43,281 nt of DNA. Origin: a virus. Taxonomy: Duplodnaviria > Heunggongvirae > Uroviricota > Caudoviricetes. Below, in pieces: positions 1,445 to 43,057 of the stretch; position 1 is the first letter of the stretch; each line of letters opens with the position of its first letter. The translations under genes and the position numbers were made by a program. Under the pieces are notes generated by a model, which ran no database searches, was not told the origin of the DNA, and worked only from the letters and a program-made list of their open reading frames with translations. The stretch is from IMG/VR virus record IMGVR_UViG_2909298281_000002; one strand, given 5' to 3'.

Positions 1445-1460
1445 TTTAAATCAATAAGTT
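1400..1460. other. putative attL junction (3' end of thrW abutting the integrase gene)
   Basis: The integrase stop codon lies 15 nt after the tRNA CCA end. P22-type integrases recombine within the 3' part of thrW. Core limits cannot be set because no attR copy was found in the window. Confidence 0.4.
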
Positions 1461-2622
1461 ACACATCATTAGTACCTTCCTTATTTTTTGACTGGGACAA
1501 ATTTGGGACCGATGGGTTCAGAATCGAGTCTATTTGCCGTGCGTGTTCGGTAAGGTGATTAGGCGCGAGGTGAGCATATCGACGAACCATTTCGATAGAC
1601 TCCCAGCCACCCATTTCCTGTAACACTGACAACGGGACTCCGGCTTGAACCAGCCAACTTGCCCAGGTGTGTCTCAAGTCGTGAAATCTGAAATCATCAA
1701 TACCAGCTCGTCTCAGCGCCGCTTTCCAGGCTGTGTTTGCGTCATACCGCATCTTCCTTACTGTTGGCGCTTTCGTTCCGTCTGGTTTGGTACAGCTTTC
1801 CTTGTACACAAATACCCAACGGTGATGATTCCCGATTTGTTTTTTCAAAACGCGACATGCAGTATCATTCAGCGCAACGCCGATTGCGCGGTTTGATTTA
1901 CTCTCTTCCGGGTTTATCCATGCCACCCGGCGCTGCATATCTATTTGTTGCCATTCAAGGTTGATGATGTTCGAGCGTCTTAAACCTGTTGCCAGTGCAA
2001 ATTCAACAACAGACTTTAATGGCTCCGGACATTCATCAATCAGCCTTTGTGCTTCATGGGGCTCCAGCCAGCGGATCCGTTTATTCTTTGGTTGAGGCAC
2101 TTTAATAATTGGTGCCTTATCCAGCATTTTCCATTCACGCTCTGCGGCTCTTAGTAGGGCCTTTATAAATGAAAGATGCGTAGCCTTCGTTGCAACGGAC
2201 GCTGGTTTTGGCGTGTATTCTGGAACAGGTTTCCCTTTTTTTCTGCATGCTTCTGCCCTGAGTTTCCAGTTTTCCTCATGACGCCGGTTCGTCATTTTCT
2301 GCATTGCTGAATAAATTTTTGATTCAGTAATGTCTCTTAGTTGCATTCCTGCGAAATGTTGAAGCCAGAATCCGATCCGGCTTTTGTCATCGTCCAGTGA
2401 TTTTTTATGTGCTTTCTCTTCAAGCCACCTGACACACGCTTCCTCGAACGTTATATCAGGTATTTCACCAAGTTTGCTGACCCGCCATGCTTCAGCCTTT
2501 AGCTTGTCATGGAGTTCTGTCGCCTGCCTTTTGTCCTTTGTTCCAAGAGACTGTTTAAATCTTTTACCGTTCGGCAATGTGAAACTGGCGTACCATATTT
2601 CACCTCTGCGGAAGAGTGACAT
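1459..2622 (-). CDS. int: tyrosine site-specific integrase (P22-type)
   Basis: 387-aa ORF; near-identical over its length to the phage P22 integrase as I recall it (N-terminus [31 protein letters not shown]-terminal catalytic region with [10 protein letters not shown] and RYAHL); adjacent to thrW. Confidence 0.95.
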
Positions 2623-2849
2623 TTTCTTTCCTCTGTTATGCCATCACCCGCGCTCACCTGGACAGTATGCAGCGGAGACTGAAGAGCCGCAATGCAGGCT
2701 TGTCGAGTTGTGAGGTAAGGAGATTTATTCTTAGTGGGATCTTTGCGTGTTGCCTGAAGACGCCCTGTGCGTATCCAGTTAATGGCAGTCGGTCTGGATA
2801 TTTTGAGAAAATGACAGGCCTCATCGAGTGTGAGGCTGTATGGCTCCAT
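2499..2849 (-). CDS. xis: excisionase
   Basis: 116-aa product starting [38 protein letters not shown], matching P22 Xis as recalled. ATG at 2849 overlaps the upstream stop (TAATG). The track ORF (2499..2933) has a 28-codon 5' extension that I reject. The 3' end overlaps the int start in another frame. Confidence 0.8.
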
Positions 2850-3154
2850 TATTTCACCTCTTGCTGTGACATTGTTGAAAAATGGATACCAGCTCGTTGC
2901 TGCCAGACGATCCAACCGAGAGTCATATCCCATGCCATGTATTCGTTATCGCCGTTTTTTGCTCTCCGACGATCTACTAAGTCACCGAAACGCTTTTCCA
3001 TGAATAATTCATAAGATTCGCGTTCATCTGGTTCTACTTCCAGAGATAGGAGTGCGATTTCATAAGCACGGCGCTCAATATCGTCTCGCACGTCAAGGCT
3101 GCTGATACGCTCTTTAATTTCTTTAATCAGTTCTTTGTCGGTAAAAGTGGTCAT
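2849..3154 (-). CDS. hypothetical early-left operon protein (YfdT-like by size and position)
   Basis: 101-aa ORF; ATG at 3154 overlaps the upstream stop; GGAG Shine-Dalgarno upstream. No domain recognised. Confidence 0.7.
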   Translation of the reverse strand: MTTFTDKELIKEIKERISSLDVRDDIERRAYEIALLSLEVEPDERESYELFMEKRFGDLVDRRRAKNGDNEYMAWDMTLGWIVWQQRAGIHFSTMSQQEVK

Positions 3155-3516
3155 TATGCTCCAGCCTCCGGTGCTTTTGGCATTACTGCCCAGTGAGTGA
3201 TATTGACGTTTTCAAGGTCCCCGACCTGAAATGTCCACTGCCATTCTCCGGTTTCTTTTTGTCCCCAGGTGTACCAGAGAGAACGCCAGCCAATCAGCCA
3301 GCCTTCTCCGTTAGCATCAAATAACAGAACACTTTCATTTGCTGGTGGCAGTTCAGTTGACACTGGTATTACTTTGTTTTCCAGTGCTGCACATTTAGCT
3401 TCAAGCGCATCGAATTTACGTACCAGGTATTCAGCATCCGTTTCATTCACTTTCAGGTCTCGTGGTACACATCTCCCGCGAAGAAACCCTTCCATTTCGA
3501 AAACATTCATGCGCAT
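3154..3516 (-). CDS. hypothetical early-left operon protein (YfdS-like by size and position)
   Basis: 120-aa ORF, ATG at 3516 with GGAG about 10 nt upstream; Trp-rich C-terminal half; overlaps the end of the upstream gene. Confidence 0.7.
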   Translation of the reverse strand: MRMNVFEMEGFLRGRCVPRDLKVNETDAEYLVRKFDALEAKCAALENKVIPVSTELPPANESVLLFDANGEGWLIGWRSLWYTWGQKETGEWQWTFQVGDLENVNITHWAVMPKAPEAGA

Positions 3517-4043
3517 TTGCGTAACTCCGATAACTCGTTAAAACGTTCCATAAACATCCCGTAGGCATGGCCCGGAGCCAGTGGAATAACTTTGAACATC
3601 TCTGTTGCCGGGATACCTTCCAGTACTGGCCAGAAAGAGCCATCATCAAGCCCGAGATCGCGGCGTTCGGTTGCCAGCATGATGAGATCGGCATATTTCA
3701 CAGGCGTGCTCATAACCGTGGGTAACCCGTATTTCTCACGGATTACGGCGTCTATTTTTTCTTCCATCCGTTTATAGTCAGGAAGAAGGCGTTTCAGCGG
3801 CGCGGGGATGTCCTGGCAATACGCTTCTGTTGCATCATGCATTAACGCTTCAAAAGCAAATTCCTGCGGCACCAGCTGGCTGCAAAGCACCGCATGTTGG
3901 GCGACACTGTAGAAGTGTGAAAGATGACCGGCAAAGCGACAGATATTTGAAAGGGAAACCGCGATATCGTTAATCACGATGTCGTCTTTATTTATCCTGT
4001 CATAATAAAAATGCTTCCCGGAAAAAGTTTTAATAAATGACAT
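3507..4043 (-). CDS. HD-domain phosphohydrolase (YfdR-like)
   Basis: His and His-Asp metal-ligand motifs (FAGHLSHFYSVAQHAV ... MHDATEAY). Start set at the ATG at 4043 (MSFIKTF...), which has GGAG 8–9 nt upstream; the track start at 4073 is a GTG without a ribosome-binding site. Confidence 0.8.
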   Translation of the reverse strand: MSFIKTFSGKHFYYDRINKDDIVINDIAVSLSNICRFAGHLSHFYSVAQHAVLCSQLVPQEFAFEALMHDATEAYCQDIPAPLKRLLPDYKRMEEKIDAVIREKYGLPTVMSTPVKYADLIMLATERRDLGLDDGSFWPVLEGIPATEMFKVIPLAPGHAYGMFMERFNELSELRKCA

Positions 4044-4136
4044 TTTGTTCTCCGCGTATATGTGCTGCACCACGCTGAATTCTGGTAAAAGGAAGCCCTC
4101 ACCATCCGGCGATTATTGAGTCAATTACGTTTCCAT

Positions 4137-4158
4137 AAATGCCCCCGCAGGGGCATTT
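4137..4158 (-). other. intergenic palindromic hairpin AAATGCCCC-cgca-GGGGCATTT between the YfdQ-like and YfdR-like genes
   Basis: Perfect 9-bp inverted repeat with a 4-nt loop seen directly; not followed by a U-run on either strand, so more likely an RNA stability or processing element than a strong terminator. Confidence 0.4.
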
Positions 4159-4170
4159 GCAGTAATGAAA

Positions 4171-4995
4171 TCAGGCGGTGAAAGTACCAATAAAGGTTTC
4201 TACTTTGCTGTCTTTGAATTTCTCAACAAGCAGATCACGAAATTCGTTAGCCATTTCTTCCTGCACCGCCTCCAGCTGAATAATGCGCAGAACCAGTACA
4301 GGACGATCGCCAGTGATAATGCTGAGGCGTAATTTAAATGGACGTTCTTTCAGACCTTCAAACGGAACGCATTTAAATTCAAATGCCACTGGCATAATAT
4401 CTTTGGTTTTCGCTTCGACAGACTCCATCAGGGAGCGTTTGCCGCTGAAGTCATTATCTTCAAAATCAGCGGTCTGGTTTGCTTCAATCGTGATTTTACG
4501 GACAGCCGCAGCCGCTTTTGTTGCCTGAATAGCGTCACCATTAGCATCAAAGCCCACAAGGTAGTCGGCCCAGTCTTCAATCCATTCTGCCAGTGACTTC
4601 TGGGAATGACGCTCGCCATTAACAGACAACAGAGCAGAGAACGGTGCTGTCTTTTTCAGTTTGAGAGTGGCGGTGTTATCTGCGTGACCTGGTTCATCAA
4701 TAGTACCCAGGTTAAGCACACTGACGGCTCGCATATTATCGGCATCGATAAAGCAGCGGGTGCCTTCATCTGCAAGATCTTTAGAATAACGGGTAAAGTC
4801 ATCGATGCTGGCAGTGGAAAGCGCACCACGGAAACGGAAGCGATTTAAATTAAATTTTTCCAGATCATGAATGCGGAAATTCTCAGGCAATGCCACAGCA
4901 TCGGCACCAATCTTACTGATAATTTCATTAACACCCTGAGCAGAAATAAGAGCATGGATTTGATTAATTGCGGTTGCGTCTAAGTTCTGAGACAT
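4171..4995 (-). CDS. DUF2303-family protein (YfdQ-like)
   Basis: 274-aa ORF beginning [20 protein letters not shown], matching E. coli CPS-53 YfdQ in length and sequence as recalled; GAGGA Shine-Dalgarno 8 nt upstream. Confidence 0.85.
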
Positions 4996-5060
4996 AATAA
5001 GTCCTCACTATATAAAGATATTCAGTGATGAGATAAATAATCAGTTAATTAAGAACGATA

Positions 5061-5423
5061 TTAATGACCTGCTGCGCGAAGTTTTCCGTCAGGTTCACCG
5101 GCAAGAGTCAGTAATTGTCCCTGGTCTTCCTGCAGAATAGTCAGGCGACCACCGCGATTGACATACATCGGCGTTTCGGTGGTGTCTTCTTCAGAAATTT
5201 TCCCGCGGTTAGTCGGGCGAACATATGAGAGTTTGTGTTTGATTTTCACACGGTTCTCATCAAACGGTTCGATTTCCAGGTTGAGCGAGACCTTACCTTT
5301 GGTTTTCGTGTTCATCACACCGGAAGCGACTTCACTGAGAACAGCGCCGATTTTGGTTTCAAATACGCCGCCGTCCAGCTCCCCGATAAATGCCTGCACA
5401 TCAGTACTGCGTTCGCTAGCCAT
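5061..5423 (-). CDS. YfdP-like phage protein
   Basis: 120-aa product from the third in-frame ATG (MASERSTDVQAFIGELDGG...), which has a GAGGAG Shine-Dalgarno 8 nt upstream. The track ORF (to 5654) starts at a TTG and runs through structured leader sequence. Confidence 0.75.
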   Translation of the reverse strand: MASERSTDVQAFIGELDGGVFETKIGAVLSEVASGVMNTKTKGKVSLNLEIEPFDENRVKIKHKLSYVRPTNRGKISEEDTTETPMYVNRGGRLTILQEDQGQLLTLAGEPDGKLRAAGH

Positions 5424-6014
5424 TTTGCTGCTCCTCATCATATCGACCCTGCAAGGTCGGTTGGTTTCTCCACAAAACAGAGAAGAACACCTGCGGTGAC
5501 TGCCGCCCGGATGGATTGGGTTATGAGCCCGTCGTCCGGTGATGCTCTTCTCTGTTTTGTAAAAAGAGCGGTACCAGCCGGAAGCAAGGGTACAAACTGG
5601 TACCGCCAAAGCAGTGGCTGTTGTGGTGGGGTTGTCACTCAGGCGTATGGTCAACCTGACAATCCGGTGTCCTCAACGGGGAAAGAGTAACCCCGCCATA
5701 CTTACCGCCGCGCCATTTCGCGGATTACCACAACGCTGAGAGCACTTAGCCAGTTACGGCACCACACTTTGTCGCGGCTCCATAAATGCCCTCATCGTTG
5801 CACCCTGGTCTCTTCCCAGGCGTCAAACCGAATCGCCACGCTGGTTAGGCGTCTTATCAGCATCATCATTGACTTGCACATTCCGGCTACCTGGTTTGTT
5901 TGCTCGAGCAAGGAGTGGATTGTCCCCTTTAACGTCACCAGACCGCTAACGACGCATGTGCCATACGCCGTGTTACAACCAAATTTTGTTTTAATCTTGC
6001 CTGTGTTGTGTTTC

Positions 6015-6056
6015 TTTTAGATACATTATGTATCTCATGGGTACATTGTCAAGTAT
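6015..6056 (-). promoter_or_regulatory. candidate PL-like early-left promoter with overlapping operator palindromes
   Basis: On the minus strand: TTGACA (plus 6047–6052), 17-nt spacer, ATAATG (plus 6024–6029). Overlapped by the palindrome GATACATAATGTATC and a GTACA half-site also present in the cI–cro intergenic region. Confidence 0.45.
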
Positions 6057-6080
6057 AAAAAAACCTGCCGAAGCAGGTTC
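6056..6080 (-). terminator. rho-independent terminator downstream of cI
   Basis: Minus-strand hairpin AACCTGC-ttcg-GCAGGTT followed by a run of seven T, starting 12 nt after the cI stop. Confidence 0.6.
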
Positions 6081-6091
6081 ATAAATATTGA

Positions 6092-6766
6092 TTAGGCCTT
6101 TATTGTGTATCTTCTTGGTTTTCCCGAGAAAATCACTGTACCAATTATAGAGCAATTACCGTTAATCTTAATGTAAGGCTCAGGCCAGTTTGGGTTTAAT
6201 GCTTTGAGATAACGCTGTGTTCCATCTTCTATCAATCGCTTGAAGGTGGTTTCGCCTGTATCGTGCATCAATGCAATAACGTCGTCACCGTGGCAGGCAG
6301 GGACTTCGGGATCAACAAAAATCATGTCTCCAGGGCGGTACTCATCAATCATTGAATCACCAATCACCCGCAAGATATAAGTCATTTCGCCACAGGGTAC
6401 AGGGCAGGGGTACGTTTCTGCTGTGCTCAAATCAACCTCAGAATAGCCAACTTCTTTCCATGCTCCGGCCTGTACCCATGATATGACAGGGACTAACGTT
6501 ATTTGTTTGTTAGTGATTGAAACATCAGGTTTTTTTGTGATGTTCGTTGTCTGGTGTTCTTGATCAAGCCATCCGACAGGCAGGTCGAAACATTTTTCGA
6601 TGTGCCGTGCCATGCTGTCACCGATATTTTTAGTAGCGCCATCCCCCATAAACCTGCTGGTTTGGGTTGGCTCGCGATCAATCATGGTGGCAAAGGATGA
6701 ATTTCCGCCAACACCATCTCTCAGTTTTCTGGCGTTAGACCGCCGGATGTCATGGATTGTTTTCAT
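6092..6766 (-). CDS. cI: CI-type prophage repressor (HTH domain plus LexA-like S24 autopeptidase domain)
   Basis: 224 aa; N-terminal helix-turn-helix; Ala-Gly cleavage site (VQAGAWKE); Ser nucleophile in GDSM and a downstream Lys (TFKRL); divergent from cro across an operator-rich intergenic region; no Shine-Dalgarno, consistent with a leaderless PRM-type message. Confidence 0.9.
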   Translation of the reverse strand: MKTIHDIRRSNARKLRDGVGGNSSFATMIDREPTQTSRFMGDGATKNIGDSMARHIEKCFDLPVGWLDQEHQTTNITKKPDVSITNKQITLVPVISWVQAGAWKEVGYSEVDLSTAETYPCPVPCGEMTYILRVIGDSMIDEYRPGDMIFVDPEVPACHGDDVIALMHDTGETTFKRLIEDGTQRYLKALNPNWPEPYIKINGNCSIIGTVIFSGKPRRYTIKA

Positions 6767-6856
6767 AACGAAATTAAAACCTTTGTACCGATAAGGTACA
6801 AGTATCTTGAAGGTTCATTTCAATCATGTAATATGTATACCGTAGGTACATATTGT
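6767..6856. promoter_or_regulatory. immunity switch region (OR operators with divergent PRM and PR)
   Basis: Perfect palindrome TTGTACC-gataa-GGTACAA (6784–6802) and a second GTACA-containing site near 6832–6853; PR-like TTGAAG (6807–6812), 16-nt spacer, TAATAT (6829–6834) upstream of cro. Confidence 0.6.
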
Positions 6857-7088: not shown

Positions 7089-7652
7089 ATGAGGCTAACC
7101 GTGGGTAAGTATCACTGGAAAGTAGAAAAACAGCCTGAGTGGTACGTGAAAGCTGTCAGAAAAACTATCGCAGCGTTGCCGGGTGGTTACGCTGAAGCAG
7201 CTGACTGGCTGGATGTAACAGAGAACGCATTATTTAACCGCCTTCGTGCCGATGGCGATCAGATTTTCCCGCTGGGATGGGCAATGGTTTTACAGCGCGC
7301 GGCTGGCACTCACTACATTGCGGATGCTGTCGCACAGTCTGCTGGTGGGGTGTTCGTATCGCTTCCTGAAATTGAGGAAGTAGAGAACGCCGATATAAAC
7401 CAGCGCCTGCTGGAAGTCATCGAACAGATCGGGAATTACTCAAAGCAGATTCGTTCGGCAATCGAAGATGGGGTCGTGGAGCCACACGAGCAGACAGCAA
7501 TTAATGATGAGTTGTATCTGTCAATTTCGAAGCTCCAAGAGCATGCAGCACTGGTCTACAAAATCTTTTGCGCTCCAGAAAAGAGTGACGCCCGCGAGTG
7601 TGCAGCTCCGGGCGTCGTGGCGTTTTGTGTCTGTGGAGAAACTAACGCATGA
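7089..7652 (+). CDS. early regulatory protein in the cII position (possibly YdaT/CII-like)
   Basis: 187-aa ORF directly after cro; family assignment is by position and weak recall only. Alternative GTG start at 7101 has a better Shine-Dalgarno (GAGG). Confidence 0.65.
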   Translation: MRLTVGKYHWKVEKQPEWYVKAVRKTIAALPGGYAEAADWLDVTENALFNRLRADGDQIFPLGWAMVLQRAAGTHYIADAVAQSAGGVFVSLPEIEEVENADINQRLLEVIEQIGNYSKQIRSAIEDGVVEPHEQTAINDELYLSISKLQEHAALVYKIFCAPEKSDARECAAPGVVAFCVCGETNA

Positions 7653-8485
7653 ACAGTTTAACGGCAAATAACCGTTTGTCGCAACAGCTGGTGGTCAGCG
7701 TCGCTGAACACCTGTTGTTACGGCATGAATGCAGATTACCAAATCACCTGGCTGTAAGTAACCACAGAGAACTTTACCTGACTGTGGGGGGCGAGTTGTG
7801 CAGGAACTTAACCGCTGGTTTAGTGACGGAAGAGGACTTTATGTTCATGTTATTCGTTGGGAGCCAGAAACACAGCGCGTTATCTATCTTCGCAAAGACT
7901 ACCCGCATGAGTGCTTTAGTCCTTTGTGGAAATTCAGGCGTGATTTTATTGAGTGTGAAGGACCACCAGCACATTGATTCTGCCATTCCGGGACGTTACA
8001 CTGTTCAGGCACCTTATAAAGCGGGTGCCGGGATTGGCGTCCTGGAATTGATCAAGGCGATATATGACGCGCCAGCGTCTTTTTTATCGTCCGCATTTGC
8101 TCACATCAAAGTTATGGTGGGCTGGGCGGGGGCATCGAAAGATGCGCCGGTTTCCTTGATCACCGGTTACGCCAACCCCGTTCAGTTCACCACCAGCGAA
8201 ATTGGCGTTTCCGGTGGTGGAAGTATTTCACCGATCAAGGAGGCTGCCATCATGGCTACTGTCCCAGCCCTCACTCGTCTGAATGATGAAGACTTACATA
8301 AACTCAGTTATGTAACAACAGCACTACGTGCTCTGCGCAAGGTAACTCTTTCAGATCCGCAGGCGCATCAACTTCTGGTAGAAACCCTTCTTAACTTGCA
8401 GGCTGAACGTATTCGTTTGGCGGATAAGGCTAATCTTCATATTCACCGTCTCCTGAATATCAGCGGAGGGCATCGTCATGCTTAA
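7649..8485 (+). CDS. hypothetical replication-region protein
   Basis: 278-aa ORF; ATG overlaps the upstream stop (ATGA), indicating translational coupling; no motif recognised. Confidence 0.65.
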   Translation: MNSLTANNRLSQQLVVSVAEHLLLRHECRLPNHLAVSNHRELYLTVGGELCRNLTAGLVTEEDFMFMLFVGSQKHSALSIFAKTTRMSALVLCGNSGVILLSVKDHQHIDSAIPGRYTVQAPYKAGAGIGVLELIKAIYDAPASFLSSAFAHIKVMVGWAGASKDAPVSLITGYANPVQFTTSEIGVSGGGSISPIKEAAIMATVPALTRLNDEDLHKLSYVTTALRALRKVTLSDPQAHQLLVETLLNLQAERIRLADKANLHIHRLLNISGGHRHA

Positions 8486-8714
8486 TCCGTTGATCCTCAA
8501 TATTCACCGTTTACTTCAGCGTAAAAAAATATCAATTCCTACAGTTGGGCAGTGGTACACCACACCTGCAGGGCATGTTCTACGTGTTAGCCTGGTTGAC
8601 CGTGAATGCCAGAAGGTGATTTGTGAACCGCTTGGCCGTAATTACCGCGTCAGTATGCCGCTTATAGCCTTTCGCTCCGGAAAAAACATGAAGCATCTCG
8701 GAGGTGCAGCATGA
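8478..8714 (+). CDS. hypothetical small protein
   Basis: 78-aa ORF with GGAGGG Shine-Dalgarno 8 nt upstream, overlapping both neighbouring genes at start and stop. Confidence 0.55.
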   Translation: MLNPLILNIHRLLQRKKISIPTVGQWYTTPAGHVLRVSLVDRECQKVICEPLGRNYRVSMPLIAFRSGKNMKHLGGAA

Positions 8715-9529
8715 GTATGGAGCTGATGGTTAAAGCGATGAAAATTCGAGTGGGTAATCCATTGCGAAAACTGGTTCTGATCAAGCTGGCTGATAATGCC
8801 AGCGATCAGGGTGAGTGCTGGCCCAGCTACCAGCATATTGCTGACCAGTGCGAGATTAGCAAACGTTCTGTGATGAATCATATTGCGGCCCTTTGTGAGT
8901 CCGGGCTGGTAAAAAAAGTCACCCGGAAAGGTGAAAAAGGTAACTCAAGTAATATCTATCTCCTTCATCTGGATGGTGCAGGAGATTCACTAGGGGGTAG
9001 TGCAAATAATTCACTATCTGGTGCAGCAAATTCACCAGGTAGTGCAGGAGTTGCACTAGGGGGTAGTGCAGGAGATTCACCCAGAACCAGTCACTCTTTT
9101 GAACCAGTCAAAGAACCAGTCAATGAACCAATAGCTGTTGGTGCATCTGCTGATGAGTCTGTGCGAGTTCGTTCAAACCGACCGGAATACTCTCCGGAGT
9201 TTGAGCAGGCATGGCTGGCATATCCCAAACGTGCTGGTGGCAATTCAAAATCTGCAGCCTTCAAAGCCTGGAAAGCCCGTTTGAATGAGGGGGTAAACCC
9301 CGAAACCATGCTGGAAGGTGTGAAACGCTATGCGGGCTGGGTATCTGCGATGGGTAACAGCGGCACACAATTTGTGAAACAGGCTGTCACGTTCTTTGGT
9401 CCGGATCGTCATTTCGAAGAATCCTGGGAAGTTCCTGCGGTATCTGCAGCCAGACGTGAGGACCCGTACTTCAAAGCCAGTTACGACAACGTGGACTACA
9501 GCCAGATCCCGGCAGGATTCAGGGGGTGA
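8711..9529 (+). CDS. replication initiation protein (O-like, N-terminal HTH domain) containing the origin iterons
   Basis: 272 aa; N-terminal winged-HTH replication-initiator-like region (LVLIKLADNASDQGECWPSYQHIADQCEISKRSVMNHIAAL); GGAGGTG Shine-Dalgarno; internal low-complexity linker encoded by direct DNA repeats, as in lambda O. Confidence 0.8.
   Translation: MSMELMVKAMKIRVGNPLRKLVLIKLADNASDQGECWPSYQHIADQCEISKRSVMNHIAALCESGLVKKVTRKGEKGNSSNIYLLHLDGAGDSLGGSANNSLSGAANSPGSAGVALGGSAGDSPRTSHSFEPVKEPVNEPIAVGASADESVRVRSNRPEYSPEFEQAWLAYPKRAGGNSKSAAFKAWKARLNEGVNPETMLEGVKRYAGWVSAMGNSGTQFVKQAVTFFGPDRHFEESWEVPAVSAARREDPYFKASYDNVDYSQIPAGFRG
8976..9131. repeat. putative origin of replication: five about 15-bp iterons plus three GAACCAGTCA repeats
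   Basis: Iterons GTGCAGGAGATTCAC and variants at 8976, 9000, 9021, 9042 and 9066, spaced 21–24 bp; then GAACCAGTCA at 9084, 9101 and 9113; all inside the initiator gene. Confidence 0.7.
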
Positions 9530-9531
9530 TC

Positions 9532-10020
9532 ATGAGTCTTTTGAATGAAGTTCAGAAATTCATTGAAGCCCATCCGGGGTGTACTTCCGGAGACATTGCG
9601 GATGCTTTTGCAGGTTACTCACGGCAGCGCGTTCTGCAGTCAGCAAGCAAGTTACGTCAGAGTGGGCGTGTGGCTCACCGTTGTGAAGGGGATACACGCA
9701 GACATTTCCCGCGCCAGACAAAGATATCGCCGGAGGCGGAACGGCAACCAGTTCGTGAAACCAGACCTGTGCGCAATTTCTATGTCGGCACTAACGACCC
9801 GCGGGAGATTTTATGCCTGACCCGCCAGGCTGAAGAACTGGAGTCCAGGGGCTTATACCGTCGTGCTGCAACGGTGTGGATGGCGGCATTCCGTGAAAGC
9901 CACTCCCAGCCAGAACGAAACAATTTTCTGGCGCGTCGTGAGCAGTGTTTACGGAAAAGCAGCAAGCGCGCTGTATCGAGTGATGAGTGGTATCTGTCAG
10001 GGAATTACGTGGGGGCGTAA
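9532..10020 (+). CDS. PerC-like transcriptional regulator with N-terminal wHTH-like region
   Basis: 162 aa from the ATG at 9532 (AGGGGG Shine-Dalgarno). C-terminal region LYRRAATVWMAAF...RREQCL fits the PerC/Pch family signature as I recall it. No Walker motif, so not a helicase loader. Confidence 0.6.
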   Translation: MSLLNEVQKFIEAHPGCTSGDIADAFAGYSRQRVLQSASKLRQSGRVAHRCEGDTRRHFPRQTKISPEAERQPVRETRPVRNFYVGTNDPREILCLTRQAEELESRGLYRRAATVWMAAFRESHSQPERNNFLARREQCLRKSSKRAVSSDEWYLSGNYVGA

Positions 10021-10346
10021 TGACGACGTTAACTCAATGCCAGCAGCAGGTGCTGGATATGCTGATTTCTTACCAGAAAGAGCGTGGCTTTCCGCCAACC
10101 AATCAGGAGGTGGCAACCATGCTGGGATACCGTTCGGTGAATGCAGCGGTGGAGCATCTTCGCGCACTGGAGAAAAAAGGCGTCATCACGATAAAGCGTG
10201 GTGTGGCCCGGGGGATCACGCTTCATACCGCGGTGAAGGACGACGACAGCGAGGCGGTCGGGATTATCCGCTCACTGCTTGCCGGTGAGGAAAACGCAAG
10301 GCTGCGTGCAACTCACTGGTTACATGAGAGAGGCCTGAAAGTATGA
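10020..10346 (+). CDS. LexA-family DNA-binding-domain protein lacking the peptidase domain
   Basis: 108 aa from the ATG at 10020 (TAATG overlap, GGGGG upstream). Aligns by eye to LexA residues 1–90 (MTTLTQCQQQVLDML..GFPPTNQEVATMLGYRSVNAAVEHLRALEKKGVI...ARGITL) and keeps an Ala-Gly (LLAGEEN), but ends before any S24 catalytic domain. Confidence 0.75.
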   Translation: MTTLTQCQQQVLDMLISYQKERGFPPTNQEVATMLGYRSVNAAVEHLRALEKKGVITIKRGVARGITLHTAVKDDDSEAVGIIRSLLAGEENARLRATHWLHERGLKV

Positions 10347-10732
10347 AGCTGATCCTGCCTTTCCCGCCCAGCGTGAACACCTACTGGCGACACCCCAACA
10401 AAGGGGCATTTGCTGGTAAGAGCCTGATAAGCGCGGCGGGGCGAAAATTTCAGAGCGCGGCGTGCGCAGCAATAGTTGAGCAGTTACGTCGTCTGCCAAA
10501 ACCAACGTCGGCACCTGCTTCAGTGGAGATCGTGTTGTTTCCTCCGGATAACCGGATCCGCGATCTGGACAACTATAACAAGGCGCTGTTTGACGCCCTG
10601 ACCCACGCGGGTGTGTGGGAAGACGACAGCCAGGTGAAAAGAATGCTGGTGGAGTGGGGACCGGTTATCCCGGAAGGGAAGGTCGAGATCACTATCAGTA
10701 AGTACGAGAAAACGGCGGGTGCAGCCGCCTGA
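10343..10732 (+). CDS. rusA: Holliday-junction resolvase RusA
   Basis: 129 aa; RusA-family pattern (PPSVNTYWRH ... RDLDNYNKALFDALTHAGVWEDDSQV); usual position between the replication genes and Q. Confidence 0.9.
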   Translation: MKLILPFPPSVNTYWRHPNKGAFAGKSLISAAGRKFQSAACAAIVEQLRRLPKPTSAPASVEIVLFPPDNRIRDLDNYNKALFDALTHAGVWEDDSQVKRMLVEWGPVIPEGKVEITISKYEKTAGAAA

Positions 10733-10751
10733 TTAAGAGGAGAAACGAAGT

Positions 10752-11549
10752 ATGAATAATCTGATGGTTATTGATGGTATTGAAGTTCGTCGTGATGCTT
10801 ATGGGCGTTACAGCCTGAACGATCTGCACAGGGCTGCTGGTTCTCTGGATAAGCATAAGCCTGCATTCTGGCTCCGCAATGAGCAAACTGAACGTTTAAT
10901 AAGCGAGTTGCAGATTTGCAACTCGGTCAATATAGAACCAGTTAACGTTATTCGTGGCGGAAATAACCAGGGGACGTATGTCTGCAAAGAACTGGTGTAT
11001 GCCTATGCAATGTGGATCAGCCCGTCATTCCATCTGAAGGTGATCCGTACTTTCGACATGGTAACCAGTGCACCGGAAAAATTATCCGGACAGGCTGCTG
11101 ACAAGATGCAGGCTGGTGTGATTCTGCTGGACTTTATGCGCCGGGAATTAAACCTGTCTAACTCTTCAGTGCTTGGAGCCTGTCAGAAACTCCAGGAGGC
11201 TGTTGGCTTACCGAATCTGGCACCGCGCTATGCCATTGATGCTCCTGCTGACGCGCCTGATGGCTCAAGCCGCCCCACGCTGTCACTGAGTGCACTGCTG
11301 AAGCAGTATGGTATCCGCCTGACAGCTAATCAGGCATATCACCAGATGGTGAAGCTGGGGATCGTCGAGCAGCGCGAACGATACAGTCGTACCGCGATTA
11401 ACAACATCAAAAAATTCTGGTCGCTGACAGCGAAAGGCTGCATGTTCGGCAAGAACATCACCAGTCCCGCAAATCCGCGCGAGACGCAGCCGCATTTCTT
11501 CGAATCCCGATTCCCTGAGCTGTTAAAGCTGCTCGATACCGTACATTGA
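10752..11549 (+). CDS. KilA-N domain protein (antirepressor-like)
   Basis: 265 aa with N-terminal KilA-N-like region (IDGIEVRRDAYGRYSLNDLHRAAG...KPAFWLRNEQTERLISEL); AAGAGGAG Shine-Dalgarno. Confidence 0.8.
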   Translation: MNNLMVIDGIEVRRDAYGRYSLNDLHRAAGSLDKHKPAFWLRNEQTERLISELQICNSVNIEPVNVIRGGNNQGTYVCKELVYAYAMWISPSFHLKVIRTFDMVTSAPEKLSGQAADKMQAGVILLDFMRRELNLSNSSVLGACQKLQEAVGLPNLAPRYAIDAPADAPDGSSRPTLSLSALLKQYGIRLTANQAYHQMVKLGIVEQRERYSRTAINNIKKFWSLTAKGCMFGKNITSPANPRETQPHFFESRFPELLKLLDTVH

Positions 11550-11556
11550 GGTGATC

Positions 11557-12546
11557 GTGAGAGCACTACTGACCCCTGAAATTGCCCCGCGTATGGGGAT
11601 CGTATTGTTCAGACCAGGTTCAGAGCTGATGCCCCTATTTATGCAGGGGCGTGTCCTGCTGGAGCCTGAGCCGGAACGTTATTCATCTTTCGCCAGTGGT
11701 GCCGTTCCGGCGGCATCACAACCGCTGGCGGATGATCCTGCCGTTCGGGCCGTGTTCCGCAATGAGGCAGTGATCCGTCGTGCTGGTGGCGTGGAATGTC
11801 TTGAAAGCTGGTTACTTCGTGAAAAAGGCTGTCAGTGGCCTCATTCCGACTGGCACAGCGAGAACATGACCACAATGCGACATGCTCCGGGCGCAATCCG
11901 TCTGTGCTGGCACTGCGATAACCAGCTGCGCGATCAATTCACGGAACGGCTGGAATCAATGGCAACGGATAACTGTGCCCGCTGGGTGTTGTCTGTCGTG
12001 CGTCGGGATCTCGGTTTTGATGATAGTCACGTTGTGACAATGCCGGAACTGTGCTGGTGGCTGATTCGTAATGACCTGGCGGATGCCTTACCGGAAAGTG
12101 CAGCCCGTAAGGCACTTAGATTACCGAAGCCTGTTGTGCCGTCTGCTACCCGGGAAAGTGACCTTGTGCCTTCGGTTCCTGCCACCAGCATCATCCAGGA
12201 TAAAGCGAAAAAGGTGCTGGCGCTGAAAGTGGATCCTGAGTCGCCGGAGTCTTTTATGTTACGCCCAAAACGTCGCCGCTGGGTTAATGAAAAGTACACG
12301 CGCTGGGTTAAGACACAGCCGTGTGCATGTTGTGGAAAGCCCGCTGATGATCCCCACCACCTGATAGGTCACGGTCAGGGTGGAATGGGTACAAAAGCGC
12401 ATGATCTCTTTGTGTTGCCTTTGTGCAGAAAGCATCACGACGAGCTGCATGCGGATACCGTGGCATTTGAAGAGAAGTATGGCTCCCAGCTGGAGCTGAT
12501 ATTTCGTTTTATCGATCGTGCGCTGGCAATTGGCGTGCTGGCCTGA
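11557..12546 (+). CDS. DUF968-domain protein (YdfU-like, Cys/His-rich C-terminus)
   Basis: C-terminal CACCGK...HHLIGHGQGG...CRKHHDELH motif typical of DUF968 proteins. Start uncertain: GTG at 11557 has GAGG 6 nt upstream; the track uses GTG at 11551. Confidence 0.75.
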   Translation: MRALLTPEIAPRMGIVLFRPGSELMPLFMQGRVLLEPEPERYSSFASGAVPAASQPLADDPAVRAVFRNEAVIRRAGGVECLESWLLREKGCQWPHSDWHSENMTTMRHAPGAIRLCWHCDNQLRDQFTERLESMATDNCARWVLSVVRRDLGFDDSHVVTMPELCWWLIRNDLADALPESAARKALRLPKPVVPSATRESDLVPSVPATSIIQDKAKKVLALKVDPESPESFMLRPKRRRWVNEKYTRWVKTQPCACCGKPADDPHHLIGHGQGGMGTKAHDLFVLPLCRKHHDELHADTVAFEEKYGSQLELIFRFIDRALAIGVLA

Positions 12547-12575
12547 TTTTGTGGAGAATTTTGTGGAGAAGGTTG

Positions 12576-12926
12576 ATGCGTGATATGTATGAAGTATTGG
12601 ACCTCTGGGGAGCATGGGCTGCAGCAGATAACAGTGGTGTGGACTGGCAGCCTGTTGCTGCAGGGTTTAAAGGTTTACTACCTCATGGAAAGAAAACACG
12701 CCAACAATGCGATGATGATGAAGGAATCATGATTGACAGCTGTGTTGCGCGATTGCGGAAATATAAGCCAGAAGAATATGAACTGATCATTGCTCACTTT
12801 GTTATCGGTATTTCACTCCGTTCAATAGCAAAGAAACGGAAATGCTCTGACGGGTCAATCAGAAAACAACTTCAAGCAGCAATAGGAGTGATTGAAGGTA
12901 TTTTGTTGATTATTAAGCCCCTGTAG
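12576..12926 (+). CDS. late-gene antiterminator Q (QuuD-like)
   Basis: 116 aa from the ATG at 12576 (GGAGAAGG Shine-Dalgarno); LDLWGAWAAADNSGVDWQPVAAGFKGL...CDDDEG pattern matches the DLP12 QuuD-type family as recalled. Confidence 0.85.
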   Translation: MRDMYEVLDLWGAWAAADNSGVDWQPVAAGFKGLLPHGKKTRQQCDDDEGIMIDSCVARLRKYKPEEYELIIAHFVIGISLRSIAKKRKCSDGSIRKQLQAAIGVIEGILLIIKPL

Positions 12927-12934
12927 GGCTTAAT
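12912..12934. terminator. convergent-gene hairpin ATTAAGCCC-ctgta-GGGCTTAAT spanning the stops of Q and the cassette membrane gene
   Basis: Perfect 9-bp inverted repeat seen directly; no U-run on either side, so terminator function is uncertain. Confidence 0.35.
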
Positions 12935-13514
12935 AATTCATATGAATTCTGTTTCCGAGATAATATAATCCAAAGAAAGTTGATACTAAGAGTTGCCAAA
13001 CGAGGAAAGTAAATACAACAGTATAAACCATTAAAACAATACTGTTTTGATAGACATTGATTAATGGTGAAAATATAGCATTAAGTATTATTATAACAAT
13101 GCTTAATGCTGTTAAAAAAGAGAATAGCATGCAAAGAAATAAGCGTCTGGTCAGAACCTCCTCTGAATTTACTACTTTTCCATTTTCTTTTGTTACTTTT
13201 ATTTCAATAGAGGCATTTCTTTCATTGCTAATCAATGGTAAATCAATCTCAGCTCTATTGAAAGTTGCTATGGCGGCCAGAGCGGCAATATAAAACCCTG
13301 GTAGGTTAGAGATAAATGAAACGATTGATTTAATGAAACCATTGTCATCAAATAAATCTTTGACAGGGATTTTTAATAGAATGAAAAGTACTGCTGTGAT
13401 AGAAGTAAGTAGAATTGGTGCTACCCAATCATATGCAGCTTTGCCGCTAATACCTTTAATAAAAAGATATCCAAACGGCTTGCCTAGATGAGAGAAAACT
13501 GAAAGTATTGGCAT
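12930..13514 (-). CDS. predicted four-helix integral membrane protein (second gene of the accessory cassette)
   Basis: 194 aa; ATG with GAGG 8 nt upstream, 7 nt after the upstream stop; four hydrophobic segments (about residues 25–47, 60–85, 125–150, 155–185); about 30% GC against about 50% for the flanking phage DNA. Confidence 0.8.
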   Translation of the reverse strand: MPILSVFSHLGKPFGYLFIKGISGKAAYDWVAPILLTSITAVLFILLKIPVKDLFDDNGFIKSIVSFISNLPGFYIAALAAIATFNRAEIDLPLISNERNASIEIKVTKENGKVVNSEEVLTRRLFLCMLFSFLTALSIVIIILNAIFSPLINVYQNSIVLMVYTVVFTFLVWQLLVSTFFGLYYLGNRIHMNY

Positions 13515-13521
13515 AATAACC

Positions 13522-14544
13522 TCACATCAAATCTATCATTTTCACAACAAACTCTAGTTCAATTTTAACATATGAATCCTTCAGGCGCGAATTAAAGTTA
13601 TCGATAATGCTTTTCTTAATAAATGTTTTTTCTAAATTATTAAGATTGATGTTTGAGGTTTTGAAATCAACCTGCCTTGGTTTATTTGTTTCAGGATCTT
13701 GGAATTTAACCTTTAATTTATCATAACCACCATTCATTTTTTTATTGAAATGAGATGCTACATTTTTAATCCATCCAATAACATTGTCACCATGATTTGG
13801 AAGTAATTTTAATGTACTTTCAGTCGGAATGTAAGGTGAATTAACATCAGGAGCATTAATTGTTCCGAATTGATCCTTGACTAATATGACATCTGATAAT
13901 CCTTTTTGGCTTATTTTATTAAAAAGCTCCTTGTCTAACATTCCTGTAAATTCAAATATTGGTTTGTATCGTATTTTTACTTCTTTTTTTGATGTTGTAG
14001 AAATAACGTTAGTTGGATGTTTTGCGGTAAATAAGTCTTCATTGTCTTTCGCTACTTCAAAGAGAATTTTGTCTAAAAAACTATTTAACCGGGCCGTAGA
14101 TACACCTGGGGTAGATGTACAAATCATATCATAGGTTCTTTTATTTCCATTTAATGATATGACAACATAGGTAGAAACTTCATAGCCTTCACCTTGTTCA
14201 TATTTTGGTTGGATTTCAACGCGTTCATTAGTATTTGTATTTTTTACAACGGTAGTACTTCCATTTTTATCAACACTATTAATAAGAAGGACAATATGCG
14301 TGGGTGAGTTATCTGGAAGTAAAGGATAAAGTTGTACATCTTGGAGAGTAACTACAATATTCCCAGAATCATATGAATGAACGAGTCCCTTTTGTTTAAC
14401 AATCAATGGGGCAAGCATGTACATTTCCGGAACAGGACATATACACTGGGCTTTTACCTCTTGTGTTGCCTTGGTTCTAAACTTTGTGTCAATGGTCAGA
14501 CTATGATGAGTAACGAGTCTTTCGCTAGCATTTAATTTTGCCAT
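13522..14544 (-). CDS. hypothetical soluble protein (first gene of the accessory cassette), no recognisable domain
   Basis: 340-aa ORF, ATG at 14544; no Walker, HxD or nuclease motif seen; Lys/Asn-rich and AT-rich codon usage; tightly coupled to the downstream membrane gene. Confidence 0.8.
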   Translation of the reverse strand: MAKLNASERLVTHHSLTIDTKFRTKATQEVKAQCICPVPEMYMLAPLIVKQKGLVHSYDSGNIVVTLQDVQLYPLLPDNSPTHIVLLINSVDKNGSTTVVKNTNTNERVEIQPKYEQGEGYEVSTYVVISLNGNKRTYDMICTSTPGVSTARLNSFLDKILFEVAKDNEDLFTAKHPTNVISTTSKKEVKIRYKPIFEFTGMLDKELFNKISQKGLSDVILVKDQFGTINAPDVNSPYIPTESTLKLLPNHGDNVIGWIKNVASHFNKKMNGGYDKLKVKFQDPETNKPRQVDFKTSNINLNNLEKTFIKKSIIDNFNSRLKDSYVKIELEFVVKMIDLM

Positions 14545-14581
14545 GAAATCATCCGATTATGATTTTTCGATTTATTTGTTA

Positions 14582-14610
14582 ATCTTACAAAAACGCTAAC
14601 GCGTACGCAA
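14582..14610 (-). promoter_or_regulatory. candidate sigma70 promoter for the accessory cassette
   Basis: Minus strand TTGCGT (plus 14605–14610), 17-nt spacer, TAAGAT (plus 14582–14587), about 35 nt upstream of the 340-aa gene start. Confidence 0.35.
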
Positions 14611-14655
14611 AAATTATTGTATCGTGTTAAGAGTGGTTACTTCGCCACACAGCTT

Positions 14656-14685
14656 AAACCCGCCGTCGAGCGGGTTTTGTCGTTT
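14656..14685 (+). terminator. tR'-like intrinsic terminator in the late leader (PR'/qut expected just upstream)
   Basis: AAACCCGC-cgtcga-GCGGGTTT hairpin followed by TGTCGTTTCT, about 145 nt upstream of the holin; analogous to the lambda 6S terminator that Q overrides. No PR' hexamers could be pinned. Confidence 0.5.
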
Positions 14686-14829
14686 CTGGGGCTGGGGATT
14701 CGTTGGTCCTGGTCTATTCCGCAGTTATCCATTGGTTCGGCTTCTTTGACGTTTCCGCTTCTAATTTGCTGTACATGATGTTCCCTCAATTTGCACCTGC
14801 TGTATCAGCGAGGTGAGAGATAACTACAA

Positions 14830-15156
14830 ATGCCTCATAACCCAAATACCTGGCTGGAGTTGTTCCAGAGCTGGTGGTGTGGAGACACACCGCTGGGCGC
14901 AGTGATTATGTCGATCGTTATGGCTGGCTTGCGCATTGCCTATTTTGGCGGTGGTGGTGGCTGGAAACGAAAAACGCTCGAGATTTTGCTCTGTGGTGCT
15001 CTGACGCTGACTTTTGCATCCGCTCTTGAGTATGTCGGATGGCCTAAATCTCTTTCTGTTGCCATTGGTGGCGGCGTTGGGCTGATCGGGGTCGATGCTA
15101 TTCGTGGGGCTGCAATGAGAGTAATCGGTAATAAGTTTGGTGGCTCTAAGGAGTAA
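14830..15156 (+). CDS. holin (lambda S family)
   Basis: 108 aa with three hydrophobic segments and a charged C-terminus; first gene of the lysis cassette, directly upstream of the endolysin. Confidence 0.85.
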   Translation: MPHNPNTWLELFQSWWCGDTPLGAVIMSIVMAGLRIAYFGGGGGWKRKTLEILLCGALTLTFASALEYVGWPKSLSVAIGGGVGLIGVDAIRGAAMRVIGNKFGGSKE

Positions 15157-15159
15157 TTT

Positions 15160-15636
15160 ATGCAGGTACTAAATTCCCAGCGTAAAGCTTTCCTGGATAT
15201 GGTGGCATGGTCAGAGGGAACGGATAACGGGCGACAACCGACACGTAACCACGGTTATGACGTTATTGTCGGTGGAGAACTCTTCACTGATTACTCCGAT
15301 CACCCTCGCAAGCTTGTCACGCTAAACCCGAAACTCAAATCAACAGCTGCAGGCCGTTATCAACTTCTTTCGCGCTGGTGGGATGCTTACCGCAAGCAGT
15401 TAGGGCTGACAGACTTCTCTCCTAAAAGCCAGGATGCTGTTGCATTACAGCAGATTAAAGAGCGTGGCGCTTTACCGATGATTGATCGCGGCGATATTCG
15501 TCAGGCTATCGATCGTTGCAGCAATATCTGGGCGTCGTTACCTGGTGCAGGTTACGGTCAGTATGAACATAAAATCGGTGACCTGATTTCCCGGTTTAAA
15601 GAGGCTGGTGGGGTGGTAAATGAAGTTGAGCTATAA
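15160..15636 (+). CDS. R: endolysin (lambda R-type lytic transglycosylase)
   Basis: 158 aa, near-identical to lambda R as recalled (QRKAFLDM.AWSEGTDNGRQ.TRNHGYDVIVGGELFTDYSDHPRKLVTLNPKLKST); AAGGAG Shine-Dalgarno. Confidence 0.95.
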   Translation: MQVLNSQRKAFLDMVAWSEGTDNGRQPTRNHGYDVIVGGELFTDYSDHPRKLVTLNPKLKSTAAGRYQLLSRWWDAYRKQLGLTDFSPKSQDAVALQQIKERGALPMIDRGDIRQAIDRCSNIWASLPGAGYGQYEHKIGDLISRFKEAGGVVNEVEL

Positions 15637-16154: not shown

Positions 16155-16330
16155 CGAGTTTTTATCATAAGAAAGGTGCTTTTCACTAAATCCCTGCATT
16201 TGAAGCTGAAGATGGAAAGAAACGCTACTGGGTATACTACTACTGGTCGCTTATTCTGAATCAGAAGAGAACGGCGTCCTTCAGCTCGAAGAGTCGGCTA
16301 TAAACAGGCACTTTGGGTGCCTGTTAATGA

Positions 16331-43054: not shown

Positions 43055-43057
43055 TCA

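Follow-up and report, generated by a model that had tools for sequence, protein, structure and literature searches.

A yfdPQRST-type cassette in the early-left operon of a Chi-rich lambdoid prophage without a recombination module

Between the early-left promoter PL and the xis–int genes, phage lambda carries the Red genes (exo–bet–gam) and P22 carries erf–abc. What does it mean for a lambdoid prophage to hold other genes at this genome position, under the same leftward early transcription? The question is raised by IMG/VR record IMGVR_UViG_2909298281_000002, a 43,281-nucleotide stretch of Caudoviricetes DNA (the window, by which we mean the whole of it) in which five leftward genes occupy positions 2849–5423. 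Here we identify this segment, almost certainly given its sequence identity to known loci, as the SfV/CPS-53-type early-left accessory cassette yfdP–yfdQ–yfdR–yfdS–yfdT of a lambdoid prophage at thrW. The prophage is typical of the published LLS-type class, in which phages have many Chi sites but no recombination (Rec) module, and the absence of the module is likely, by analogy with phage LLS, to be compensated by Chi and host RecBCD rather than by the cassette. Interference with host replication initiation is the sole cassette activity with experimental support, shown for the proteins of Escherichia coli K-12. The gene set, its position, the absence of a Rec module in such phages and the host-directed activity of YfdR are all already published; taken as a whole, an explanation that joins cassette identity, its expression, RecBCD-based recombination and interference with host replication is in our judgement the best one, and rather probable. 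The most interesting by-product is a structured leader RNA upstream of the cassette, which may already have been described elsewhere.

Identity of the cassette

The initial annotation had placed a YfdP/Q/R/S/T-like set at 2849–5423, made up of a DUF2303 protein, an HD-domain phosphohydrolase and three small unknown proteins. That interval brackets yfdT to yfdP exactly, 5423 being the first base of the yfdP start codon and 2849 the last base of the yfdT stop codon on the minus strand, and the gene calls are backed by the Prokaryotic Genome Annotation Pipeline (PGAP) annotation of a close prophage relative that is 100% identical to the window at 2400–6100. Reading leftward on the minus strand, the genes are yfdP (5061–5423; 120 amino acids), the conserved partner directly upstream of yfdQ; yfdQ (4171–4995; 274 amino acids), encoding the DUF2303 protein; yfdR (3507–4043; 178 amino acids), encoding an HD-fold, YfbR-like phosphohydrolase, with an open reading frame (ORF) extendable to a GTG at 4073; yfdS (3154–3516; 120 amino acids), whose product has a coiled-coil-like N-terminal segment and a C-terminal DUF551; and yfdT (2849–3154; 101 amino acids), a variable distal member of the cassette without a Pfam domain. 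YfdQ matches PF10065 over residues 7–272 of 274 at 310 bits (cut-off 26.6; E = 1e-92), and residues 50–117 of YfdS pass DUF551 (PF04448) marginally, at 22.1 bits against a gathering cut-off of 22. The three small proteins are therefore present as described, but YfdS, which carries DUF551, is not wholly unknown.

Over their full length in BLASTP, YfdT, YfdS, YfdR, YfdQ and YfdP are 95, 97, 98, 99 and 99% identical, respectively, to the proteins of CPS-53 (KplE1) of E. coli K-12, which bears the same five genes in the same order. At such identity they are orthologues of the K-12 proteins and not look-alikes, which bears out the gene names first proposed. The order P–Q–R–S–T on one strand and the spacing are as in K-12 and in Shigella phage SfV, whose DNA is about 98% identical to the window from int to the replication gene, taking in int, xis, the five yfd genes (orf28–32 in SfV), cI, cro and the replication gene itself. 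In SfV, unlike here, an insert of about 400 bp that holds orf33 and another terminator separates PL from the conserved leader described below. The block is present too in SfII, SfIV, cdtI, mEp460, Ayreon, 2H10, Kati and Stx2c-converting phages. Queried as a 3.7-kb segment (2400–6100), it has a partial or full match in 4,986 of 5,426 complete E. coli genomes, covering at least 80% of the query in 945, and matches in 229 phage records.

The identity of 95–99% to the CPS-53 proteins means that the published results on DnaA binding and inhibition of oriC apply almost directly here. The two prophages differ in their regulatory surroundings: CPS-53, a remnant at argW, no longer has the cI, PL and structured leader that the window prophage retains, and its TorI/IntS stand where the window prophage has P22-type Xis/Int. 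In CPS-53 (our locus L002, 7240–7615), iteron-like repeats (GACGGGTCAGATTTTGA...) of a truncated yfdO join about 25 nucleotides upstream of the yfdP start; because these iterons abut yfdP, the K-12 cassette that was studied experimentally is without its native promoter, operators and leader RNA. The prophage described here shows the cassette in an intact regulatory setting, unlike the K-12 remnant.

Absence of a Rec module and enrichment of Chi

The Rec-gene test, for which 14 reference proteins are cited, applied a tblastn threshold of E ≤ 1e-5. Lambda Exo, Bet, Gam and Kil, P22 Erf, Abc1 and Abc2, the Gam, RecT, Exo and single-stranded DNA-binding protein (SSB) of ArgO145, and the Erf of Xanthomonas phage CP2 had no match in the 43-kb window; nor was a lambda Red or P22 Erf/Abc homologue matched in two sets of related loci, of 80 and 98. 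PHROG and Pfam scans of the ORFs at 7089–12926 revealed no Rec-module gene, and the PGAP annotation of the related prophage contains none. What these scans did recover on the early-right side are a CII-like protein, an Ash-like regulator, an O-like/DnaD-like protein, PerC-like and LexA-like proteins, RusA, KilA-N, DUF968/HNH and Q. The RusA Holliday-junction resolvase (10343–10732, plus strand; phrog_34, E = 3e-58) is the sole recombination-related gene of the prophage. The reported absence of exo/bet/gam and erf/abc/kil is thus upheld, across the window by tblastn and at 7089–12926 by PHROG and Pfam.

The prophage carries 16 Chi octamers (GCTGGTGG) between 3341 and 21844, 13 on the plus strand, which corresponds to the top strand of the lambda map, and 3 on the minus strand. 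This compares with 1.73 ± 1.25 expected, and none of 100 shuffles reaches 16; Chi is the commonest plus-strand octamer of the prophage. PR and the late genes are on the plus strand too, and 9 of its 13 Chi sites fall within 7.3–15.6 kb. This location, just upstream of the terminase genes, puts the nine towards the right-hand end of the virion map, a placement shared with LLS. One Chi (3341–3348, plus strand), antisense within yfdS, is the only site in the early-left operon, all others being at 7.3–21.8 kb.

This combination has a recent precedent. Zheng, Casjens, Davidson, Amundsen and Smith (Genome Res 2025; PMC12315714) found that 68 of 314 enterobacterial lambdoid phages are without a Rec module, and that 62 of these 68 have at least eight Chi in the active orientation and no more than six in the other. 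LLS, the type phage, grows better with RecBCD; it has an O-like replication gene only, no N and homologues of yfdR, yfdQ and yfdP in its early-left operon, homologues that the authors note in both LLS and ST64B (PMC12315714). The window prophage encodes no single-strand annealing protein, exonuclease, SSB or anti-RecBCD gene, and its 13 top-strand and 3 bottom-strand Chi stand on the class's side of the bounds of at least 8 and at most 6. It shares with LLS the lack of Rec genes, Chi enrichment, O-only replication, no detected N, yfdR/Q/P and the leader element; the YfdQ and YfdP of LLS are ST64B-like and about 57–63% identical to the window proteins. For LLS, a free phage, improved growth with RecBCD has been shown, whereas the window prophage is assigned to the class from its sequence. 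By analogy, its recombination-dependent growth would use host RecBCD and RecA at the 13 co-oriented Chi, together with phage RusA, which would make the prophage a useful natural instance of the LLS-type strategy in clean form, with host RecBCD and Chi serving in place of a recombinase of the phage's own.

The cassette itself fits poorly as a stand-in for the missing genes. It is not homologous to lambda Red or P22 erf–abc, and elsewhere yfdPQ homologues adjoin Red-like modules; because these homologues also occur beside complete Rec modules, the cassette is not a substitute for Rec genes. Zheng et al. likewise state that yfd genes are neither restricted to Rec-less phages nor universal among them (PMC12315714). 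The initial annotation had the cassette present 'instead of recombination genes': the absence of Rec genes stands, but the idea of replacement does not, since yfdP and yfdQ homologues adjoin a complete Rec module in ArgO145 and Erf with an exonuclease in CP2.

Promoter, operators and the structured leader

Between yfdP and the gene for a CI-type, Peptidase_S24 repressor (6092–6766, minus strand; Pfam E = 1.5e-26; ymfK-like, as SfV cI) lies a non-coding gap of 668 bp (5424–6091). Its repressor-proximal end holds an intrinsic terminator of the repressor gene (6061–6080, minus strand; 8-bp stem and T-run), also annotated in SfV and Ayreon, and directly after it a candidate PL promoter on the minus strand (6025–6052; TTGACA-16-CATAAT), which matches the sigma-70 consensus at 11 of 12 positions. 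The Ayreon record has a terminator and a promoter annotated at the equivalent places. An operator-like 20-mer (TATGTATCTCATGGGTACAT) at 6027–6046, in the spacer of the candidate PL and overlapping the promoter, is 80% identical to 6832–6851 in the cI–cro intergenic region, a recurrence expected for shared operators. Early leftward expression from PL, as first proposed, is therefore plausible from the promoter's position and its operator-like sequence.

The coding regions yfdR/yfdS, yfdS/yfdT, yfdT/xis and xis/int overlap. The excisionase gene xis (2499–2849, minus strand; phrog_2907, E = 1e-50; Pfam HTH_17) has a start codon that overlaps the yfdT stop by 1 nucleotide, and the P22/SfV-type tyrosine integrase gene (1459–2622, minus strand; Pfam Phage_integrase, E = 3e-48; PGAP start 2577) adjoins tRNA-Thr. 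Because the coding regions from yfdR to int overlap or abut, a single leftward PL transcript ending in xis–int is the natural reading: the cassette would be read leftward from a repressor-controlled, PL-like promoter (6052–6025), through a structured leader of about 600 nucleotides, into xis and int. Within the operon, a hairpin (AATGCCCC-TGCG-GGGGCATT; 4138–4157, minus strand) separates yfdQ from yfdR, and the Ayreon record has a terminator annotated immediately after its yfdQ.

The leader folds far better than shuffled controls as a whole (z = −6.5), and so does a conserved element within it (5444–5607, minus strand; z = −6.2). Along the transcript the element begins with a terminator-like GC hairpin followed by a T-run (5607–5560), whose stem sequence varies between phages while the hairpin is kept. 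A stem of about 25 bp (5565–5467) then closes two apical stem-loops, the first of which contains a near-invariant core, CGACGGGCTCATAACCCAATCCATCCGG (5534–5507; also written CGACGGGCTCATWACCCAATCCAYCCGG), and a small hairpin (5459–5444) precedes the yfdP ribosome-binding site. The last 185 or so nucleotides of the leader (5607–5424) are found with the operon in almost every related locus. The long hairpin keeps about 85% DNA identity in ST64B and a Klebsiella phage, whose YfdP and YfdQ are about 60% identical as proteins. Compensatory changes support the fold: RNAalifold on seven phages gave 59 pairs, 15 of them with such changes, and among 15 distinct variants 94.3% of cells are paired, compared with 37–49% in slid controls, with double changes in 8 pairs and 26 cells. 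Shuffles give a covariation score of 0.091, and none of 500 attains the 0.177 of the real alignment.

The element is found in at least 120 IMG/VR contigs and in 71 phage records, including LLS, phiNP, ST64B, SfV, SfII, SfIV, mEp460 and Stx phages, and is lost from K-12 CPS-53. It goes with the PL leader, not with yfdP, since another gene comes first downstream in 24 of 108 loci. Rfam returned no match at E ≤ 1, and the window contains no second copy, none lying downstream of PR.

The obvious comparison is with the put RNAs of HK022, which are also structured cis-acting RNAs in the PL leader of an N-less lambdoid phage, with a core of two adjacent stem-loops. The present element is larger (about 100–160 nucleotides), its two stem-loops are closed by the stem of about 25 bp, it lies about 410 nucleotides from the promoter rather than immediately downstream, and the terminator-like hairpin precedes it rather than following. 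The HK022 PL–nun (putL) and nun–cI–cro regions have no similarity to the PL and PR leaders of the window. We rejected an HK022-type put RNA given the lack of similarity to HK022, the single copy and the absence of an Rfam match; put-like antitermination in LLS was itself only speculated on by Zheng et al. (PMC12315714). From its sequence and predicted fold, the element may act in cis in N-less lambdoid phages, as an RNA for antitermination or processing, and, as a leader RNA of SfV/ST64B/LLS-type PL operons without an Rfam family, it may explain how their early-left genes are expressed. The sole small ORF in the leader (5792–5938; 48 amino acids) was considered as an N gene and rejected, as it has no arginine-rich N terminus, although N proteins are diverse.

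YfdR and host replication initiation

YfdR differs from K-12 YfdR at 4 of 178 residues and matches phrog_318 at E = 5e-111. Its residues His49, His69–Asp70 and Asp119 align with the metal-binding residues of Atu1052 (PDB 2gz4; E = 2e-12), leaving the H...HD...D signature intact; with this conservation it belongs to the HD-domain phosphohydrolase superfamily. It falls short of the YfbR family cut-offs, at 24.4 versus 25.9 bits for Pfam PF12917 and 20 versus 122 bits for the NCBIfam equivalog NF003009, and by sequence is a distant relative of YfbR, not an equivalog. The 5'-nucleotidase activity of YfdR is weak (PMC4776307), and the nucleotide affinities of the K-12 protein are low according to the summary of Zimmerman 2008 given in that paper.

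Noguchi and Katayama (2016; PMC4776307) found that Phe46 is needed for YfdR to bind domain I of DnaA, where YfdR is a moderate competitor of DiaA and DnaB. Multicopy yfdQ and yfdR together with yfdS or yfdT suppress over-initiation in hda-185, dnaAcos and seqA mutants and also inhibit oriC initiation in the wild type, and extracts containing YfdQRST inhibit oriC replication in vitro; the authors suggest an ancestral phage role resembling that of lambda P (PMC4776307). In later work YfdR figures as a prophage protein that competes with DnaB for domain I of DnaA (PMC12122000). Lambda P and Bacillus subtilis SirA are, like YfdR, DnaA binders that block initiation and are encoded by a mobile element or a developmental programme, and SirA targets the same Phe46/Phe49 patch of domain I. 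YfdR is not homologous to either; it has an HD phosphohydrolase fold, needs YfdQ and YfdS or YfdT in vivo and inhibits only moderately in vitro. The initial annotation had called a host-takeover role plausible but unproven. The plausibility is well founded, as K-12 YfdR (98% identical) binds DnaA domain I and yfdQRS/T inhibits oriC, but 'unproven' understates the published support (PMC4776307).

In the window prophage, such an activity would meet a notable replication module. Its sole replication gene encodes an O-like/DnaD-like initiator (8711–9529, plus strand; phrog_270, E = 2e-88; Pfam HTH_36 and DnaD_N), and neither a helicase nor a helicase loader is encoded by the prophage. O-only modules are found in 34 of 314 lambdoid phages (about 11%), where they are called 'not yet understood' (PMC12315714). 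Once the prophage is induced, the cassette would keep the host chromosome from starting further rounds of replication, and this may free DnaB–DnaC for a phage replicon that encodes an O-like initiator only; because the phage encodes no helicase or loader, displacement of DnaB from DnaA could favour the phage origin. Takeover of host replication as the function of the cassette is a mechanistic proposal that we advance tentatively, as a possibility somewhat short of even. Its most specific form, in which YfdR with YfdQ and YfdS or YfdT occupies the DnaA Phe46 patch and leaves DnaB–DnaC to the O-like initiator, the operon being switched on by the leader RNA through readthrough of the leader terminator, is speculative and, in all its particulars, unlikely. 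Were it true, the YfdR cassette would be a missing piece in the replication of lambdoid phages with an O-like gene only, and the link between a DnaA/DnaB-competing protein and loader-less phages is directly testable.

Separable units within the cassette

The composition of the cassette was surveyed across 80 IMG/VR loci with 99–100% identical YfdQ, and distant contexts were taken from annotated phage records. YfdP accompanies YfdQ in all 80 loci, YfdR in 79, YfdS in 56 and YfdT in 36, with no Rec gene within 6 kb in any. Farther afield, YfdR, YfdS and YfdT are missing from the loci of ArgO145, Pseudomonas PG1, Vibrio 34E29.1 and Xanthomonas CP2, but each has a homologue of YfdP (E = 1e-17 to 1e-48) as the immediate upstream neighbour of YfdQ. 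Neighbours of the distant yfdPQ pairs are SSB, a DnaQ-like exonuclease, Erf with an exonuclease (as in CP2) or a full Red-like module: in ArgO145, Gam, RecT, Exo and SSB are followed directly by the yfdP homologue and yfdQ, which confirms the example of Zheng et al. Among gene lists with DUF2303, that of JC1 also has RecT and YqaJ, and that of VvAW1 SSB and an exonuclease. Conversely, in 17 of 98 loci the same PL leader runs straight into yfdR, without yfdPQ. Because each occurs without the other, the conserved pair yfdPQ and yfdR are separable units, with yfdS and yfdT variable.

The yfdP–yfdQ pair also behaves as a discrete insertion/deletion module bounded by hairpins (4138–4157 and 5444–5459), as seen in loci L099, L110, L113, L117 and others. 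In prophages without yfdPQ (L099, L110 and others), a sequence closely similar to that after the loop of the first of these hairpins (…GGGGGCATTTATGGAAA…), with a similar but non-identical hairpin, is joined directly to the leader. Three database proteins (P0011, P0073 and P0160) carry both the YfdP label PF27127 and DUF2303 PF10065 and are apparent fusions or mis-called genes; YfdP–YfdQ fusions, if real, would be consistent with a functional partnership.

A homologue of YfdQ has been solved as PDB 9o7m, 'YfdQ Protein', with 36 chains of one sequence (E = 6e-45), and this entry may already reveal what DUF2303 assembles into; we found no publication on it. Chain C is an example chain, and chains A and B may be something else. 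Our AlphaFold2 model of YfdQ (34-sequence alignment) has a predicted local distance difference test score (pLDDT) of 74.7. In Foldseek it had no match to PDB below E = 0.1, 9o7m, which may post-date the library copy, not being among the matches, and its matches in BFVD were only DUF2303 or uncharacterized phage proteins, including one of Gordonia phage Herod. The YfdP model (pLDDT 72.6) has one long helix and a three-stranded curved sheet. An NTF2-like or CaMKII-hub-like assignment for YfdP was rejected, the Foldseek matches being weak and not significant (E ≥ 0.015; template-modelling score about 0.3), and the YfdP, YfdS and YfdT sequences had nothing below E = 0.19 in PDB. The domain search and structure prediction suggested at the outset have thus yielded Pfam domains for YfdQ and YfdS and the HD fold for YfdR, but no functional lead from the YfdQ and YfdP models.

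Weighing the interpretations

Several points tell against the combined explanation of RecBCD-based recombination and interference with host replication. The RecBCD dependence of the prophage is argued from LLS, and the DnaA evidence comes from K-12 proteins, not from an inducible phage. The effect on DnaA was seen with multicopy expression only, which the authors concede may be an overexpression artefact, and deletion of yfdQRST gave no initiation phenotype (PMC4776307). The 17 of 98 otherwise similar operons with yfdR but not yfdPQ, and the distant phages with yfdPQ but not yfdR, mean that the dependence of yfdR on yfdQ seen in K-12 need not point to a natural complex. As to expression, the leader hairpin and T-run (5607–5560) could terminate PL transcripts before yfdP unless they are antiterminated, and neither an N homologue (tblastn of the window with lambda N) nor a put-like sequence was found.

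Two other accounts centre on the catalytic site of YfdR. Early-operon accessory regions often hold anti-defence genes, and with its HD site intact YfdR might hydrolyse immune signalling nucleotides (cyclic oligonucleotides or glycocyclic ADP-ribose, gcADPR) or counter defences that deplete deoxynucleoside triphosphates (dNTPs), with the small proteins as defence inhibitors. DUF551 is indeed fused to varied phage proteins (PMC10834534), and in Vibrio phage 34E29.1, a podovirus, a protein with a Tad2-like (Thoeris anti-defence 2) domain is encoded three genes downstream of yfdQ and SSB (L086, 5212–5721). It is the sole anti-defence signal seen near any yfdQ homologue, and it is a separate gene in an unrelated phage. 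The five cassette proteins had no match to an anti-defence family in Pfam or PHROGs, no dedicated anti-defence library being searched; they are unmatched by PADLOC, which covers defence systems, and none scores above NCBIfam cut-offs. YfdR groups with YfbR-like 5'-monophosphatases, not with known cyclic-nucleotide phosphodiesterases, and its nucleotide affinities, as summarized above, are low. The anti-defence or signalling-nucleotide role raised by the initial annotation thus gained no support, and we regard it as very improbable. That YfdR should be mainly a 5'-(deoxy)nucleotidase adjusting deoxynucleoside monophosphate (dNMP) and dNTP pools during lytic growth, a role for which phage T5 Dmp offers a comparison, with DnaA binding incidental, is also improbable. 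Its PHROG annotation, 'deoxyribonucleoside 5' monophosphate phosphatase', its RefSeq name, 5'-deoxynucleotidase, and its conserved H/HD/D residues agree with such a role, but its scores lie under the YfbR cut-offs; moreover, temperate lambdoid phages are not known to degrade host DNA into dNMPs. Phosphatase activity on cytidine monophosphate (CMP) has been reported for YfdR, yet yfdR deletion left the CMP yield unchanged where deletion of other phosphatases changed it (PMC10870394).

The remaining accounts look to the other cassette genes. YfdP–YfdQ could be an unrecognized DNA-transaction module, binding single-stranded DNA or DNA ends or serving as an accessory of recombination or replication, and so partly supply the missing Rec function. 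This stays a rival because yfdPQ recurs in a DNA-metabolism context, repeatedly beside SSB, a DnaQ-like exonuclease, Erf and an exonuclease, or Gam/RecT/Exo/SSB. The conservation of the pair across Escherichia, Pseudomonas, Vibrio and Xanthomonas phages, the fused database proteins, the large assembly suggested by the 36 chains of 9o7m and the sensitivity of yfdQ deletion mutants to methyl methanesulfonate (MMS) and H2O2, as cited in PMC4776307, point the same way. Against it, yfdPQ co-occurs with complete Rec modules and hence is no alternative to them (ArgO145; PMC12315714), is missing from the same 17 of 98 otherwise equivalent Rec-less operons, and stands in a prophage whose strong Chi enrichment argues for reliance on RecBCD. 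The AlphaFold models of both proteins are, besides, unlike any solved annealing protein, nuclease or SSB (no Foldseek match in PDB at E < 0.01), and we consider the proposal rather unlikely. The same H2O2 sensitivity, reported for deletion of CPS-53, yfdQ or yfdS and accompanied for yfdQ by MMS sensitivity (Wang 2010 and Rooney 2009, as cited in PMC10834534 and PMC4776307), might instead indicate that the cassette is kept because it helps the lysogen to tolerate oxidative, acid or DNA-damage stress. Those phenotypes come from a decayed prophage without cI, PL and the leader; in an intact prophage, behind a repressor-controlled promoter and a leader terminator, the cassette should, from this arrangement, be silent in a stable lysogen, and it is carried by plaque-forming phages, among them SfV, Ayreon, LLS and mEp460. 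A benefit to the lysogen is accordingly hard to credit.

Other features of the prophage

The left end of the window is host DNA, with proA (1–1254) followed by the tRNA-Thr gene thrW (1369–1444) next to the integrase gene. This attachment site, thrW beside proA, is presumably also the one used by SfV. The tail of SfV is of the myovirus type, and the late genes of the window differ in being lambda-like siphovirus genes. On the right, no repeat of the thrW 3' end (attR) was found within the window; the right end is therefore beyond the window or degraded. The region beyond the tail-fibre genes (40900–43281) has a low GC content of 34–36%, and strain 203740 carries genes for a GIY-YIG protein and a Dcm-type methyltransferase at the equivalent position. 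On the opposite strand, a two-gene island of about 31% GC (12930–13514 and 13522–14544, both minus strand) separates the Q-like antiterminator from the lysis genes. Its PADLOC matches are to the two components of a candidate defence system, PDC-M53 (M53B, E = 2e-54; M53A, E = 2e-32); the prophage of strain 203740, otherwise similar but different across 12536–17308, lacks the island.

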